Of a stretch of 64,000 nt of DNA, positions 28,380-53,939 are shown piece by piece. A model generated the notes under the pieces. The model saw nothing but the letters and a program-made list of their open reading frames with translations. It was not told the origin of the DNA and made no database searches. Every line of letters starts with the position of its first letter. The stretch's first letter is position 1. Source of the stretch: Escherichia coli (GTDB taxonomy: Bacteria > Pseudomonadota > Gammaproteobacteria > Enterobacterales > Enterobacteriaceae); NCBI RefSeq assembly GCF_030013205.1, contig NZ_CP122649.1. One strand, written 5' to 3'. Both the position numbers and the translations under genes were made by a program.

Positions 28380-28542
28380 ATGCCCTCCTTTGTATGAGTC
28401 TACTATACCAGGTTCCGTTCCAGCCCAAATAGGTTCAGTGCATGAAAAATAGGCTTTCCCGTCCGAATCTGCAAATCCACTCTGGCGTGCCTTTGCTGCC
28501 CTGCGTGAGATTTTCTTTCCGGTTGCGTATGACAGATTCCGT

Positions 28543-28553
28543 AAAGTTACTTT
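28543..28553. promoter_or_regulatory. AAAGTWACTTT palindrome site
   Basis: Exact match, intergenic upstream of 28065..28379. Confidence 0.6.
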
Positions 28554-29263
28554 CTATCCGTCTTGATTAAAACCAGATCCTCTGACTTCACCATCCACCA
28601 GCCAGAACCACGGACGCAAAACCATTACGAAAAAATCCGTCAACTTTACCCCCTGTCGATAGCCCCCCGACAATCGGGTGCCTGCACCCTGTATCAATCA
28701 CCACCGCCCCCACATCCGCCACCAGCGTCCCCACTGTCGCCCCCAACGCCAGTGTCTGAGTAGCCGGAGATTAAGAAGAAACCACTTTCGCCTGTGTTCG
28801 CTCCACTCTTACTGGACTGCGTAAACTGACGCCCTCCGCCCTGGAAACGGTAAAGTGCCTTTTTATTACGGAGACAGAGGTAAAGACAAACAGCAACATA
28901 GAGGATTAATGCAATATTGAGTAACATTACAAAACTCCTGTGCGTCATCGTTAATGGACTCGGTATTTACATTAAAGTCCCTTGTTCTTAAATTTTGTTA
29001 ACACGCCCCTTTTCTCCCGACCGCAAATTATTATGGAGCGAGTCCGTCACAGACGACACCGCAGTCGTCAGCCAGACATATCCACCACGCAGGCCATGAG
29101 GTACCGAAGATTTCTTTCCGGATGCCAGATCTCTTTTTAGTTCCCAGCATCATCACCGCCCCCGGCTAAACCATCTGCATGAGGCCAGGCTTACACCACC
29201 AGCTGCGGGCCCCGGACAGCCCAATGATCCTTTTTCCGTATGCCAGCTCTGAGTGCTGAGCCC

Positions 29264-29292
29264 ACAAAAAAGAAACCCGGTGTTACCGGGTT
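29264..29292 (-). terminator. intrinsic terminator
   Basis: AACCCGG-TGTTA-CCGGGTT hairpin with T-tract on the minus strand. Confidence 0.55.
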
Positions 29293-29302
29293 CTTGTGCT
29301 AA

Positions 29303-29554
29303 TCAACTGGCCTTCAGCCCATGGCTTTGCAGGTAGCTATTGAGCGCATCATTGGCACCGGATTCATAATTCCAGTTTCGCCAGACCAGCTGGCTGTCGT
29401 GGTCGCGATGATCACGGATGACAATCTGGAAATGGCCTGCTGGCTGGAGGTTTTCGATAAAGACGTTCTGGTACCCAGCGGCGACAGTGCGTGCCTGAGC
29501 CAGTGTTACCGGTGATTCGCTGCTGAATAAATCGCTCATAAGAATTTCCTTCAT
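29303..29554 (-). CDS. hypothetical protein (83 aa)
   Basis: ORF with terminator immediately downstream. Confidence 0.45.
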   Translation of the reverse strand: MKEILMSDLFSSESPVTLAQARTVAAGYQNVFIENLQPAGHFQIVIRDHRDHDSQLVWRNWNYESGANDALNSYLQSHGLKAS

Positions 29555-29584
29555 AATCGCCAGGCCGGAGCCTGGCTAGGGGTG

Positions 29585-30130
29585 TCAGGCCGCGAGGTGT
29601 TTGGCGAGTTTAACGAAGTGGTCTTGGTTGTTGTACAAAGGCATCTGATAGGCCAGGTCCGAAATAAACATCCGGATCTGGTCAAACGTCATGCCGCAGT
29701 TGAAGCCAGTTTCGCTGACATTAGCCCGTGGAAAATCATCGCAAAATTCGTTTAACACCTTGTCATGGACAATGCCGATATTAAGGAGTCCGGCAGGACC
29801 GTTATCACGGAAAGACACAACACGGAATGCGCCATACCAGCCCGACTGGAAAAAGAAGGTAAACGCCTGGGTTGCAAGTCCGTTAAAGAGCTCGTAACGC
29901 TGGCTGGCACTCAGTGACTGGCTGTCCATGCTGTACACGCGATTGATAAAGACGCCCGGGCCGATGTTTGCGGGGATCTGCCCGTAAGCAATGCACGGCA
30001 TGGCCATTTCAGATGCGTCTTTGGTATCATCAATCACTTTATATTGCGCGGCGATAATATCCGCCAACATTGAGCCGCCAAGTGCGCTAATTGCTGCGAT
30101 GTCATTAACCTGAATATTTAAAGTTTTCAT
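29585..30130 (-). CDS. hypothetical protein (181 aa)
   Basis: ORF, no motif recognised. Confidence 0.55.
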   Translation of the reverse strand: MKTLNIQVNDIAAISALGGSMLADIIAAQYKVIDDTKDASEMAMPCIAYGQIPANIGPGVFINRVYSMDSQSLSASQRYELFNGLATQAFTFFFQSGWYGAFRVVSFRDNGPAGLLNIGIVHDKVLNEFCDDFPRANVSETGFNCGMTFDQIRMFISDLAYQMPLYNNQDHFVKLAKHLAA

Positions 30131-51016: not shown

Positions 51017-51206
51017 TCCCGGTTGCCCTGCCTTGATCCCGTATCGTTTATACCGGTCTGCTCTTACATCCTACCTGGGCAGCAGCTGGCTACGGTGATC
51101 GGGTATTAAAATAGAACCGGTCTGTTTTACCGCAGATTCAACGCCCCGCACCTAGCGTAAAATCGCCTTTCCCGGATGCCCTCCTTAGTCGTCCGGCACG
51201 ATGGCG

Positions 51207-52388
51207 CTACTCCCAGCGATAAGGGGTAAAATAGTCCTCGTTAACAGCAAGAAATTCGGTCAGGGAATGCATCGCCTTCGTGTCATATGCCGTCACAATA
51301 AAACGGTATCCGTCCACCGTTTCGATGTAGCTGATCCCCCGTGGCGTGCAACTGGATTTCACAACTTCCGCCGTCATCATAAACTGCCCTTGCGGAAATT
51401 CCGGTGACAGGTAGATAAAGCCAGTGGTGGCTGATGACGGGTTGGCATTCATCAGCACGCCGTTAAATTGCTTTCCGTGCCGCGCCGGAATCAACGCGCT
51501 CCCCGCTGTCGCCTGAGTCATCAACTGGCGGATCAGGGTTTCCTCTTTATCTGAGCTGTAGGCGCGAACATCATTTTCAGCCCCGGAGCGTGAGTAGACG
51601 CCGACATGAGCAAGACGTCGGTACTCGTTACGCATATAGGCATGACAGGATGCACCGGCTCGCCCCTGAAGAGTGACGCCAAAGTCTTCACATAACATCA
51701 GTACCTGGCGCAGGTTTTTGTCATAGACCGTGGCAGAGAGCGCCAGGTTATAGCTGATGAATGTCAGCTCAAAAACCCGGGTATGTGCGTCACTAAGGTG
51801 TGCCTCCATGCGGATCACTGGTTTCTCCGTCATTGGAAACGGCGTACCGGCCAAGCAGTACGAGGTAACATCGCTAAAACACTCGTCGATCACACTGGCA
51901 ATGACCGTATCGGCGTCAATGACAGCCGGAGCTGGAACATAAATCTGAAACTGTCCTTCAGTGCCCGGTTGGATCAGGACGGGGTATAGACGCGGGGAAT
52001 TGAGTTGTTCGCAGTCGGCATTGATCAGTTCTGTCCAACCGGGTTTTCCGGTGGGAGCATCAAGGCGAAGACCCAGGTTATCGCAGAAGTCGACGATCTG
52101 GCGGGAGTGCTCCACCATCACTGCCCCGGAGAGTGTCAGACCGTGCGTAACCATCTGCATCTCACTCGTCCGGGTCTGGGAGTTCTGGGACCAGGGCTGT
52201 AATGAAAGCGTCGTCCGACTTAAGGAGGGAATGATGGTTTCATTCAGAGGTTCAATAAGCTGGCAATGCGCATACAGCCGGGTGGCGAGGAAGTCAAATA
52301 TGAAGCTTGCCTGTTGTTTTGTGCTGGCCTGAATATAAAACATCGCATCCATGCCTGAATCCCGGGATGAAATACCGAAAAGTTTCAT
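51207..52388 (-). CDS. hypothetical protein (393 aa), in the antitoxin position after a HigB-like gene
   Basis: Starts 8 nt after the HigB-like stop; no HTH recognised. Confidence 0.6.
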   Translation of the reverse strand: MKLFGISSRDSGMDAMFYIQASTKQQASFIFDFLATRLYAHCQLIEPLNETIIPSLSRTTLSLQPWSQNSQTRTSEMQMVTHGLTLSGAVMVEHSRQIVDFCDNLGLRLDAPTGKPGWTELINADCEQLNSPRLYPVLIQPGTEGQFQIYVPAPAVIDADTVIASVIDECFSDVTSYCLAGTPFPMTEKPVIRMEAHLSDAHTRVFELTFISYNLALSATVYDKNLRQVLMLCEDFGVTLQGRAGASCHAYMRNEYRRLAHVGVYSRSGAENDVRAYSSDKEETLIRQLMTQATAGSALIPARHGKQFNGVLMNANPSSATTGFIYLSPEFPQGQFMMTAEVVKSSCTPRGISYIETVDGYRFIVTAYDTKAMHSLTEFLAVNEDYFTPYRWE

Positions 52389-52396
52389 TTTTTACC

Positions 52397-52693
52397 TTAA
52401 TGGATGAGCGATTTATAATCATGCGCCGACAGGTGGACGTTATGTACGCCATCGTTCCACTCAAAGAATAGCCGATATTTTGAATTAACTCGAATGGAAG
52501 AATACCGGTTTGCGGTCATTCTTAAGCGTTCGTACCGCAAACTACCAGATAACAATTCGCGTTCGTTTTTAACATTATTTAACGTTTCCAGTCTGCATGA
52601 AATCGCATTAATCAGTTCAGCAGGAATGCCTGCCGTGGATTTTCCATTACGGAAAAACTTTTCCAATCGCCTGTCTTTAAATGAATGGATCAT
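52397..52693 (-). CDS. HigB-like toxin (plasmid maintenance killer family, RelE/ParE fold)
   Basis: [24 protein letters not shown] ... IRVNSKYRLFFEWNDG fits the HigB killer pattern. Confidence 0.68.
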   Translation of the reverse strand: MIHSFKDRRLEKFFRNGKSTAGIPAELINAISCRLETLNNVKNERELLSGSLRYERLRMTANRYSSIRVNSKYRLFFEWNDGVHNVHLSAHDYKSLIH

Positions 52694-52756
52694 ATTTTCC
52701 TCCGTAACGAAATGAGTTTAAATAAATAAGAATTAAAAAAGCCTGAATCTAATTTA

Positions 52757-53224
52757 TTACATCCCGAGGATTCTGGCTGCGACCGTCAGTTGTTTATCAC
52801 TTAATGGAAATTTGCGTGATAACGTCGACTTCAGGCTGTTCAAAAAACTGTTCTCGCCGTCTTGCTGCGTGATGGCGTCCACCAGTTCTTGGTGGTTCTG
52901 ACACCAGAGGTTGAACGCGGAAGTCTTTGATTGAACAGCACGTTGACGCTCTGCTGCCTGAGCGGCTGAGATCTTGCGAGCAGCTTCTGGGTATATGCGA
53001 TACAGTGCAGTCAGGGTGTAACAGGTACGGGTAGTGACCAGGCTATAGCCAGTGGCATTACAGGCAATACAGCGGCTCTTATAAAAGTGATTGCGTTCGC
53101 CACGTCCATTGCATTTATTGCAAGTAACACGGTAAATATATTCCCCGGTGCCTTTTACTGAATCAATACACTTAATCTTAGCGTTATCGATTGCCATTCC
53201 GCTACGGTCAAAGTATTTATCCAT
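52757..53224 (-). CDS. zinc-ribbon protein (155 aa)
   Basis: CNKCNGRG ... CIACNATG. Confidence 0.55.
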   Translation of the reverse strand: MDKYFDRSGMAIDNAKIKCIDSVKGTGEYIYRVTCNKCNGRGERNHFYKSRCIACNATGYSLVTTRTCYTLTALYRIYPEAARKISAAQAAERQRAVQSKTSAFNLWCQNHQELVDAITQQDGENSFLNSLKSTLSRKFPLSDKQLTVAARILGM

Positions 53225-53939
53225 TTTTGATTCCTCAGGTTTGGTCTGAAGTAATAATGACAGATTGGCCTCGCTGGCTAATAACCTGAACGAACGTTTT
53301 TTGAAAATAAATCAGGAAGGATGATTGAGATGATTTATATATGCAGGATTCAATTTTAATGGAGGGTATTTTCAGAATTATCTGTTTACAAAAAACGAAA
53401 CAAATCCTAATGAGGCATTTATTGCATCACAATAAAAGTGATTGCTTTTCACTCATTTGAGTAGCGATGCTTAAGTATTTATCCGTTTTAAGGTATAACA
53501 GCAGCGTGATACGGCTCAGGGAATGCCTGTCCGTCACCTTAATGATGCTTTACTTCCGGTTGCCGAAACAGTCCATATGGCTGACATGTATAACACGCAC
53601 GGTCTAACGCAGTTCCGGGGGGTGGCACAGCGGCGTGATGCCGCTTTAATCTGGAAAACGCAGGCATCTACTGGTGCCTCAGGATCGCGGCACTCGCAAG
53701 CTGAAACACCAGAGCCTGTTCGTCTTCCGGCTGTATCGCTCGTCCCCGTCTACAAAACCCGTCTCATCCGCAGGTATCGCTGGCGCACTCCCAGACGGTT
53801 AGAGGCTTTCGGGAACTGCCTGGGTCAAAGAACACCGGCGTTCAGGTAGCTGTTGAAATGGACATCTACACGTTTTTGTTCAAGTGATTCAGTTGTGGTG
53901 AGGGCATAACGGGTAATGCCCTCCCGTGAAGCCCTGAGA

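Follow-up and report, generated by a model that had tools for sequence, protein, structure and literature searches.

Are the short oriented repeats that recur between the small genes of an IncHI1 plasmid an element of their own, or do they belong to a palindromic operator found in the same spacers? The question is raised by a 64-kb stretch of Escherichia coli plasmid DNA (the window), in which the original prediction had listed copies of such a repeat and had considered both an extended operator arm and a separate element such as a promoter core. The repeat, called the motif in the following, has the core word TTYCCGGWTGCC and is a real and conserved dispersed cis-element of IncHI1, IncHI1B-like and IncHI2 plasmids, which is apparently undescribed. 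As its best explanation we tentatively favour, at slightly less than an even chance, a duplex-DNA recognition site of a putative lineage-specific protein, which would serve a block of co-oriented small genes as a distal regulatory site.

An oriented motif with sharp boundaries

The window is 100% identical to the 216.7-kb E. coli plasmid NZ_CP122645.1 (8 kb compared; MOBH relaxase, MPF_F), with 1-2-nt indels beyond ~45.3 kb, and collinear with the Salmonella Typhi plasmid R27, the IncHI1 archetype. The motif is one-directional and covers 12-13 nt in the form T.TTYCCGGWTGCC. Allowing one mismatch at most, TTTCCGGWTGCC matches 14 times in the window against 0.55 expected, a number reached in none of 100 shuffles, and the exact 10-mer TTCCGGWTGC is present ten times against 0.36 expected. 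On the whole plasmid (216.7 kb) 14 of 16 near-matches fall inside the window. A position weight matrix (PWM) gives ten strong copies on the + strand between 28.5 and 58.4 kb, and its matches elsewhere on the plasmid (eight on the + and eight on the − strand) are unclustered. When the copies were aligned on their CCGG core, high information content was found across ~13 contiguous positions and background level directly on either side, without any further conserved column within ±30 nt. Such sharp boundaries are typical of a single protein contact surface.

Motif discovery, proposed by the original prediction as the check, was performed as an unbiased 9-mer search (one-mismatch neighbourhood, second-order background) in the 12.9 kb of intergenic DNA of the window. 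Four families were ranked by this approach: the palindrome AAGTWACTT, a repeat of the oriT region (GTCACTTTT), the motif, represented by TTCCGGTTG, TCCGGTTGC and CCGGATGCC, and the promoter-like box CTAATAACC. The motif is therefore a family of its own and not a mere flank of the palindrome. The positions given before for its intergenic copies hold to 1-2 nt (28516, 29115, 29233, 33085/6, 51015/6, 51168/9, 53553), and the copy said to lie within a coding sequence (CDS) is indeed found at 38926-38942 inside CDS 38917-39141. Additional copies were detected at 39710 (intergenic), at 46203, 58377, 5424 and 3067 (CDS), and on the − strand at 450, 21214 and 36105 (Table 1). Full-text literature searches, whose coverage did not extend to the original R27 genome paper, found neither the motif nor the palindrome described for IncHI plasmids.

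The palindrome has a full form of ~GGAAAAGTWACTTTTCC (17 bp) with a GTWAC core and two symmetric A/T arms, and it looks like a KorB-O_B or parS-type site. It is found 23 times in the window against 1.4 expected, and its 41 sites plasmid-wide are spread across the whole backbone, in spacers as well as in genes (examples are 8206, 16463, 17388, 22124, 28543, 32959, 33077, 39603, 45841, 51006, 53940 and 62425). Probably its binder is the protein with a ParB helix-turn-helix (HTH) encoded at 31659-32864, for which this binding is predicted. The two elements differ in their distribution, the palindrome occurring all round the plasmid and 14 of 16 motif copies lying in the window. Furthermore, a distant IncHI-like Klebsiella plasmid (NZ_CP125139.1; L010) carries 14 palindromes in 41 kb, of which six form a stack immediately upstream of the gene for a ParB-HTH homologue (36% identical protein), and no motif in the expected orientation was found in these 41 kb. 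This plasmid is typed as Klebsiella IncHI1B/pNDM-MAR-type. In the first 30 kb of its locus the spacers of the equivalent block are filled by an 11-copy repeat, GTATTCCCCCCGCATGCGGGGGTTATCGG, a G/C-rich hairpin.

Nevertheless, palindrome and motif meet in a class of composite sites, in which the offset from the palindrome to the motif behind it is constant (7-8 nt) and both share the edge TTTTCC, which is the outer edge of the palindrome arm and the 5′ end of the motif. Four composites are present on the plasmid (window 33077-33097 and 51006-51027; plasmid record 172368, − strand, and 204755-204776). Counterparts exist at two loci that are syntenic with the window block, one from Klebsiella grimontii (L004; IncHI1B-typed, ~81% identical) and one from pAPEC-O1-R (L005; IncHI2, ~70% identical in genes); the composite at 33086 is kept at L004 25161 (degenerate) and 28656-28676 and at L005 25452-25472. 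A scan of a genome collection with the composite pattern returned at least ~120 chance matches in unrelated phyla, and multiple palindromes were present in none of the matches listed.

These composites, together with (T/C)ACTT upstream of two stand-alone copies, argue for the motif being an extended arm of the palindromic operator and thus part of the site of the palindrome binder. For the family as a whole we regard this as quite improbable, since the GTWAC core is missing from six of the eight intergenic copies and from all CDS copies, and only four of the 41 palindromes carry the extension. The earlier statement that copies often lie directly 3′ of a palindrome likewise applies to just two of the eight intergenic copies (33086 and 51016). 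At 28516 a palindrome (28543-28553) is found on the other side, 16 nt away, and the other non-composite copies have no palindrome nearby. Because the boundaries are sharp, most copies are solitary, the motif is confined regionally in contrast to the palindrome, and L010 keeps the palindrome only, the notion of a separate element stands, and that of an operator arm survives for the minority of composites.

Position relative to genes, promoter boxes and transcripts

GCAWCCGGRAA is the sense-strand reading, with respect to the local gene, of 13 of 16 copies, including the mobH copy, which lies on the opposite absolute strand. The + strand likewise holds 13 of the 16. As both rules fit the same number of copies with different exceptions, they are inseparable. 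With the ten strong copies on the + strand, the local genes have GGCAWCCGGRAA in their sense strand. Eight of the 11 strong copies are intergenic, compared to ~20% of the window (binomial P = 2e-4), and the five sense-oriented CDS copies all fall within the last 40% of their genes (combined P = 0.04), so that every copy lies 50-610 nt upstream of the next start codon. Copies sit either in the gap from the end of a transcription unit to the promoter box of the following unit, or within the upstream gene, in its 3′ part.

The promoter box is a third repeat, GGTTATTAGCCAG-N16/17-TATAAT-like, which is found on the − strand of eight spacers 35-60 nt before start codons (Table 1). The GGTTATTAGCCAG boxes are invariant in three lineages and the remaining spacer diverges; they are probably real promoters of the block, and the extension conserved around their weak -35 (TTAGCC) hints at a factor binding at this place. 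Relative to the box, the motif is located another 80-280 nt upstream. Four of six motif spacers contain the box, compared to three of 17 others (Fisher P = 0.045), an association that is weak and confounded by spacer length.

The motif itself is not a promoter core, as had been proposed. No -10 or -35 is present at a fixed distance on either strand, a promoter scan found none at the motif, and the conserved box downstream is distinct from it. A sigma-70 core (hexamers 16-18 nt apart and fixed relative to the motif) was seen neither in the copy alignment nor in the scan. A sigma-54 promoter (TGGCAC-N5-TTGCW) was likewise absent from the aligned copies, in which GG is missing 10-11 nt before TTGC on the + strand and no TTGC follows GGCA on the − strand. 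Coding fits no better: the CDS copies are read in three different frames (Q/H-P-E at 38931, 46203 and 5424, S-I-R-K at 58377, A-T-G-K in mobH), the intergenic copies lie in short frames between stops (10-70 codons) with unrelated peptides, and orthologous motif spacers differ by 1-2-nt indels. On the + strand the W position gives ATG or TTG, but the resulting mini-ORFs (open reading frames, ORFs) have only M/L-P in common and no Shine-Dalgarno. Although TTGCC in the motif resembles a -35 and the copy at 39710 encodes L-A-S-G-T in an ancestral gene, a promoter core or a coding signature of a small-protein family is therefore extremely unlikely.

The gene just mentioned is a 97-aa ORF (M..LTQAQIYVLRRLASGT.YEI..., HTH-like N-terminus) without a Pfam match or a PDB sequence match. 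It is intact and unannotated at L004 40104-40397 (−) and L005 32484-32777 (−), and the sequence of copy 39710 encodes L-A-S-G-T in both. In the window (39694-39796, −) ~30 codons are left, the 3′ part being replaced by a 134-nt segment that carries a palindrome. The serine codon of L004 is AGC, which breaks the DNA motif, and the conservation of this copy may thus partly be that of the protein. L-A-S-G-T was rejected as a general coding signature because the other copies are in other frames or in none.

The motif is also independent of folding. Single-stranded DNA (ssDNA) folding of three motif spacers gave z = -1.0, -2.9 and +0.2 with dinucleotide-preserving shuffles. With plain shuffles the values of 16 spacers overlap fully (motif +0.8 to -3.6, motif-free +0.7 to -6.2). 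No shared local hairpin or consistent pairing of the 12 nt was found in ±50-nt windows, and at gathering score Rfam recognised only sok (33875-34036) in the window. An element of the RNA, with the sense transcript GGCAWCCGGRAA bound by a protein or small RNA or acting as an ops-like or pause signal, we consider improbable. The sense orientation of 13 of the 16 copies including mobH, the copies in gene 3′ parts and inter-cistronic DNA and the nature of the motif as an oriented 12-nt word, as in ops, would agree with it. Nevertheless, a terminator-like hairpin directly precedes copies 29233 and 33086, at 29233 a strong intrinsic terminator; a secondary structure common to the copies is lacking, and the 3′-end bias reaches only P = 0.04. 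Moreover, only the initial GGC is like ops, canonical ops sites have no related pattern, and no NusG paralogue is annotated on the plasmid.

One composite-bearing spacer, upstream of the ParB-HTH gene, is spanned in R27 by a RefSeq 126-aa hypothetical protein (window 32981-33376, −; record 91839-92219). As this peptide looks non-protein-like, the spacer may be transcribed as a non-coding RNA or a long leader. The R0104 probe, matched to this ORF by gene order only, gave a high signal (~2,200 units) in donors.

Table 1. Positions of the motif copies, promoter-like boxes, Chi sites and gene groups. Coordinates refer to the window unless L004 or L005 is named.
Feature	Position	Strand	Context
Motif, TTTCCGGTTGCG	28516-28527	+	intergenic, ~140 nt upstream of gene 28065-28379 (R27 R0113); orthologous copies at L004 20517 and, displaced within the spacer, L005 20420
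Motif, TTTCCGGATGCC (perfect)	29115-29126	+	intergenic, upstream of gene 28694-28927; first of a tandem pair, 118 nt apart; ortholog L004 21135
Motif, TTTCCGTATGCC	29233-29244	+	intergenic, 29 nt beyond the intrinsic terminator 29293-29273 of the DUF905 gene
Motif, TTCCCGGTTGCC	33086-33097	+	composite with palindrome 33077-33087; ~220 nt upstream of ParB-HTH gene 31659-32864
Motif, CTTCCGGTTGCG	38931-38942	+	3′ end of CDS 38917-39141, read Q-P-E-E; ortholog L004 39449
Motif, GTTCCGGATGCC	39710-39721	+	spacer 39402-39796, in remnant of 97-aa gene
Motif, CTTCCGGTTGCT (weaker)	46203-46214	+	inside 809-aa PAPS-reductase-family ORF, 237 nt before stop
Motif, TTCCCGGTTGCC	51016-51027	+	composite with palindrome 51006-51016; ~310 nt upstream of gene 50376-50708
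Motif, TTCCCGGATGCC	51169-51180	+	27 nt beyond stop of ORF 51207-52388; second of a tandem pair, 153 nt apart
Motif, CTTCCGGTTGCC	53553-53564	+	divergent spacer 53225-54083, ~330 nt upstream of 52757-53224, the gene that opens the − strand block
Motif, TTTCCGGATGCT	58377-58388	+	Ig-like-domain ORF 58152-60536 (−), 236 nt before stop
Motif, TTTCCGGATGCA	5424-5435	+	inside CDS 5266-5688 (−)
Motif, TTTCCGGTTGCA	3067-3078	+	Y-family polymerase gene (+); orientation relative to the gene opposite to most copies
Motif, TTTCCGGTTGCA	21214-21225	−	relaxase gene mobH, hypervariable C-terminal linker; sense strand GCAACCGGAAA
Motif, TTTCCGGGTGCC	36105-36116	−	spacer 36003-36187; better-matching ortholog TCCCGGTTGCC at L004 39065-39067 (−)
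Motif, TTTCCGCATGCC (weak)	450-461	−	intergenic; PWM score 13.2
Motif copies of L004	20517, 21135, 25473, 28666, 39449, 40322	+	40322 with one mismatch
Motif copies of L004	39067, 13205	−	
Motif copies of L005	20420, 25462, 29457, 29551, 34662, 32702	+	25462 and 34662 fused to palindrome; 32702 with one mismatch
Motif copies of L005	20873, 12885	−	
Promoter-like boxes	~28403-28437, 30152-30183, 31015-31072, 32913-32949, 40982-41035, ~49880-49920, 50747-50778, 53253-53310	−	
Box of the ParB-HTH gene, GGTTATTAGG-N16-TATTGT	32913-32949	−	preceded by palindrome 32959-32969
Chi sites	21200, 24181, 26073, 26840, 28352, 28595, 28719, 29196, 30676, 31988	−	
Tra1 genes (trhH, trhG-type, trhR/trhY)	1-16.8 kb	−	
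oriT-type spacer	16.8-17.6 kb		with 44-bp repeats
mobI-mobH-traD operon	17.6-27.6 kb	+	
~45 small genes	27.6-53.2 kb	−	all co-oriented
Divergent gene cluster	from 54 kb	+	

Conservation and setting in the transfer region

Copies are kept in the syntenic spacers of both L004 and L005, even where the surrounding spacer is unalignable. In the 7.9 kb of L005 spacers TCCGGTTG was found independently among the top 8-mers (three against 0.12 expected), and five + strand copies of TYCCGGWTG are present there. A copy may change its place between orthologous spacers; ahead of the R0113 homologue, IncHI2 has it upstream and not downstream of the palindrome. A similar picture is seen within mobH. The linker around 21214 has a protein identity of 52% (L004) and 33% (L005), compared to 86% and 66% for the entire protein, and (G/A)CAACCGG(A/G)AAAGAA is retained there in IncHI1 and IncHI1B (copy at L004 13205), the linker of the IncHI2 locus having its copy at a different place (12885). 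Such retention with turnover is the pattern that is produced by selection on a DNA word.

Some copies coincide exactly with breaks of inter-lineage homology (window 33091 and 39709), and the 97-aa gene remnant of the window diverges right after the motif. Furthermore, L004 harbours a 3.5-kb segment of + strand genes (25161-28676) between two direct palindrome-plus-motif composites, whereas the IncHI1 window has a single composite without this segment, a difference consistent with deletion or insertion via recombination between the ~20-bp repeats. These observations would agree with non-functional relics, i.e. scars of old duplications or recombination junctions between modules. Yet conserved islands naturally end BLAST alignments and explain the breaks equally well. 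The boundaries of the motif are sharp with no similarity in the flanks, and it is kept over ~30% divergence at which the flanks randomise, with new positions arising in the same spacers and in the linker. We consider relics very improbable.

The strong copies are concentrated behind the relaxase operon, in the block of small genes that includes genes for DUF905, the 401-aa ParB-HTH protein, hok/sok, DUF957, DUF3085, DUF6012, HNH, an 809-aa PAPS-reductase-family protein and RelE/ParE. No phage match was found for the window. An IS1 copy and an E. coli chromosomal fragment (corA, ysgD) are inserted in the block at 36188-38604, and R27 has this insertion as well. The PAPS-reductase-family gene (45976-48405, −) is one 809-aa ORF here and in IncHI2, and owing to a 1-nt difference it is annotated as two overlapping CDSs in NZ_CP122645.1. 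The trhR-mobI spacer contains four direct repeats of 42-44 bp (17124-17317), each with an inverted pair CATAGGGTCACTTTT...AAAAGTGGCCCTATG; they are probably oriT or relaxosome-binding repeats, and their k-mers ATAGGGTCAC are found in IncHI2, too.

The block is a probable leading region. DUF905/YubL, a ParB-type regulator and hok/sok-related genes hold ranks 2, 5 and 16 among leading-region families (PMC11541004 Suppl. Table 1). Chi sites (GCTGGTGG) support a direction of transfer: the − strand carries ten between 21200 and 31988 and the + strand none in that interval, and ~0.7 per strand would be expected from composition for the entire window. The same polar array exists in L004 (11 sites, 13189-28640) and L005 (12 sites, 12685-35632). 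Chi in this orientation is active for RecBCD entering at the oriT end and moving rightwards. It follows that the + strand would be transferred rightwards, and the transferred strand (T-strand) would then serve as template for the − strand block, which is what one expects of leading genes.

This setting raises the possibility that the recipient reads the motif on the incoming T-strand, as a hairpin-independent signal for priming or initiation of the complementary strand or for early transcription, which we regard as unlikely. We know of no primase with a specificity for 12 nt. The leading-like character of the block (co-oriented genes; DUF905, ParB-type regulator, hok/sok) and the Chi array to the right of oriT in three lineages speak for such a signal. 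It also explains equally well why 13 of 16 copies are on the + strand, which weakens the case for a duplex-DNA site, and it agrees with the limitation of the motif to ~40 kb after oriT. Several genes of the block (R0106-R0109 and R0111) were moreover 'not expressed' in R27 donors according to microarray data (PMC7366339 supplement). On the other hand, all characterised ssDNA promoters and single-strand initiation (ssi) signals are large stem-loops (PMC12672017), whereas motif spacers fold no better than motif-free ones and share no hairpin. The conserved mobH copy and the copy at 36105, which is kept in L004, lie on the other strand, and the strong intergenic enrichment is not needed by this model.

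More broadly, the motif could be a new polar leading-region signal, to which we give a low probability that still deserves some weight. It might act in hairpin-independent initiation or priming on the T-strand, or as a docking site for a partner protein that controls a KorB-like ParB clamp. In the docking version the partner would capture or block clamps loaded at the 41 palindromes, which could result in direction-dependent long-range control of establishment genes.

Ter sites are asymmetric and sharply bounded, with ~10 copies in one orientation per region, in genes and spacers. This similarity suggested polar barrier sites for a Tus homologue of the plasmid, and indeed a Tus-family protein is encoded that is 60-100% identical among motif-bearing lineages and 23% identical in the motif-less Klebsiella lineage. 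This co-distribution simply tracks phylogeny. There is no opposed cluster elsewhere on the plasmid, no copy upstream of tus and no likeness to the GTTGTAAC core, and where such cores do occur on the plasmid they are unconnected with the motif; intergenic enrichment would be left unexplained. Ter-like sites are thus very unlikely indeed.

Proposed function and comparison with known systems

A regulatory site on duplex DNA is preferred because it accounts for the compact boundaries, the intergenic preference, the independence of reading frame and the lack of structure, and also for regional confinement, evolutionary turnover and composites with fixed offset. According to this proposal a putative sequence-specific protein of the plasmid lineage would recognise TTYCCGGWTGCC on duplex DNA, and the motif would be an operator or upstream element that helps to set the expression of the transcription units of the block. 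At the minority of composites this protein may cooperate or compete with the palindrome binder, in analogy to KorB and KorA/TrbA of RK2.

Apart from the strand bias discussed above, several observations weigh against a duplex-DNA site. The distance from motif to promoter is variable, and tandem pairs (118, 153 and 94 nt) show no helical phasing. Plasmid regulons are dominated by dimeric repressors, for which an asymmetric site whose copies mostly (13 of 16) point the same way is unusual. Scans of 40 proteins with Pfam yielded the ParB HTH as sole DNA-binding domain and no candidate binder of the motif. BLASTP showed no relationship among the genes downstream of copies, which are ORFans and in several cases encode membrane-like N-termini; paralogous autoregulators encoded downstream of the copies were rejected on this ground. 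In the R27 microarray the downstream genes respond differently, R0113 being constitutively high, R0112 low, and R0105 low and HtdA-responsive (PMC7366339 supplement).

For every family considered, defining features are absent from the motif, and in its way of working it comes closest to a single word of a plasmid regulon with multiple operators. The nearest paradigm is RK2/RP4 with its KorB O_B palindromes and KorA O_A/TrbA operators (PMC11790492, 10.64898/2026.05.27.728120). Both systems have short conserved words across backbone spacers, a palindrome of 13-17 bp with dozens of sites at variable promoter distance, and a ParB-HTH gene beside a palindrome cluster; in both a second word sometimes adjoins the palindrome, suggesting cooperation of two proteins. 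KorA and TrbA operators are, however, palindromic and overlap the -10 or -35, whereas the IncHI motif is asymmetric, strongly oriented, located 80-280 nt upstream of promoter boxes or sometimes in genes, and restricted to one 55-kb sector. Unlike RK2, IncHI has no identified KorA- or TrbA-like protein, and the nature of its ParB-HTH protein as a CTPase clamp is putative.

P1 parS (box A heptamers and the box B hexamer TCGCCA) also places an A/T-rich inverted repeat beside an asymmetric G/C-rich word at a fixed offset, and the motif ends with GCCA (WTGCCA in several copies). Box B, however, always accompanies box A, whereas most motif copies are far from a palindrome (four composites), and the motif sites are not a centromere, the par loci of the plasmid being located elsewhere. 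The analogy was rejected, as the best relatives of the IncHI HTH are chromosomal ParB/Spo0J proteins (E = 3e-4) and no match to P1 ParB was obtained. Frpo and ssi elements of IncF and IncI plasmids share with the motif that they are repeated non-coding elements in the spacers of a co-oriented leading-type block with DUF905, a ParB-like gene and hok/sok. They differ as imperfect hairpins of 100-300 nt that recreate -35 and -10, the motif having 12 nt and no hairpin context; identity was rejected since the spacers fold undistinctively.

Ter/Tus resembles the motif in asymmetry, sharp limits, number and uniform orientation of copies and in the Tus homologue on the plasmid. It differs in sequence, in the second opposed cluster that makes a fork trap, and in the strong intergenic preference of the motif. 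The ops/JUMPStart element of RfaH is likewise a 12-nt oriented sense word beginning with GGC in long co-directional arrays, including conjugation operons. Its sequence diverges after GGC, and several motif copies lie behind terminators and before promoters instead of in 5′ leaders; ops was rejected because none of the plasmid's four canonical GGCGGTAG occurrences is related to the motif. AcaCD/SetCD boxes of IncA/C and SXT (~28 bp, ~TGCCCAAWWNGGNCA) abut the -35 of tra promoters for class II activation (PMC4207636). They are unlike the motif, and as the PWM map has no motif upstream of tra operon starts, this identity was rejected. The same applies to a MOBH nic region, which adjoins a long inverted repeat (of 32 nt in the TraI system of gonococci; PMC6736028): no inverted repeat is found beside the copies, and the oriT spacer (16828-17584) contains no copy.

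Three dispersed words, namely the palindrome, the promoter box and the oriented 12-mer, thus provide handles for the proteins that control an early-entering, establishment-type block. IncHI1 and IncHI2 plasmids such as R27, pHCM1, R478 and carriers of mcr-1 and tet(X4) are major vectors of multidrug resistance. To our knowledge about two thirds of their genes are without known function, and we know of no DNA site for the IncHI regulatory circuit of TrhR/TrhY, HtdA and H-NS/Hha. If the motif were read on ssDNA or directed a ParB-type clamp, models of the leading region would extend past the hairpin promoters of IncF and IncI plasmids.

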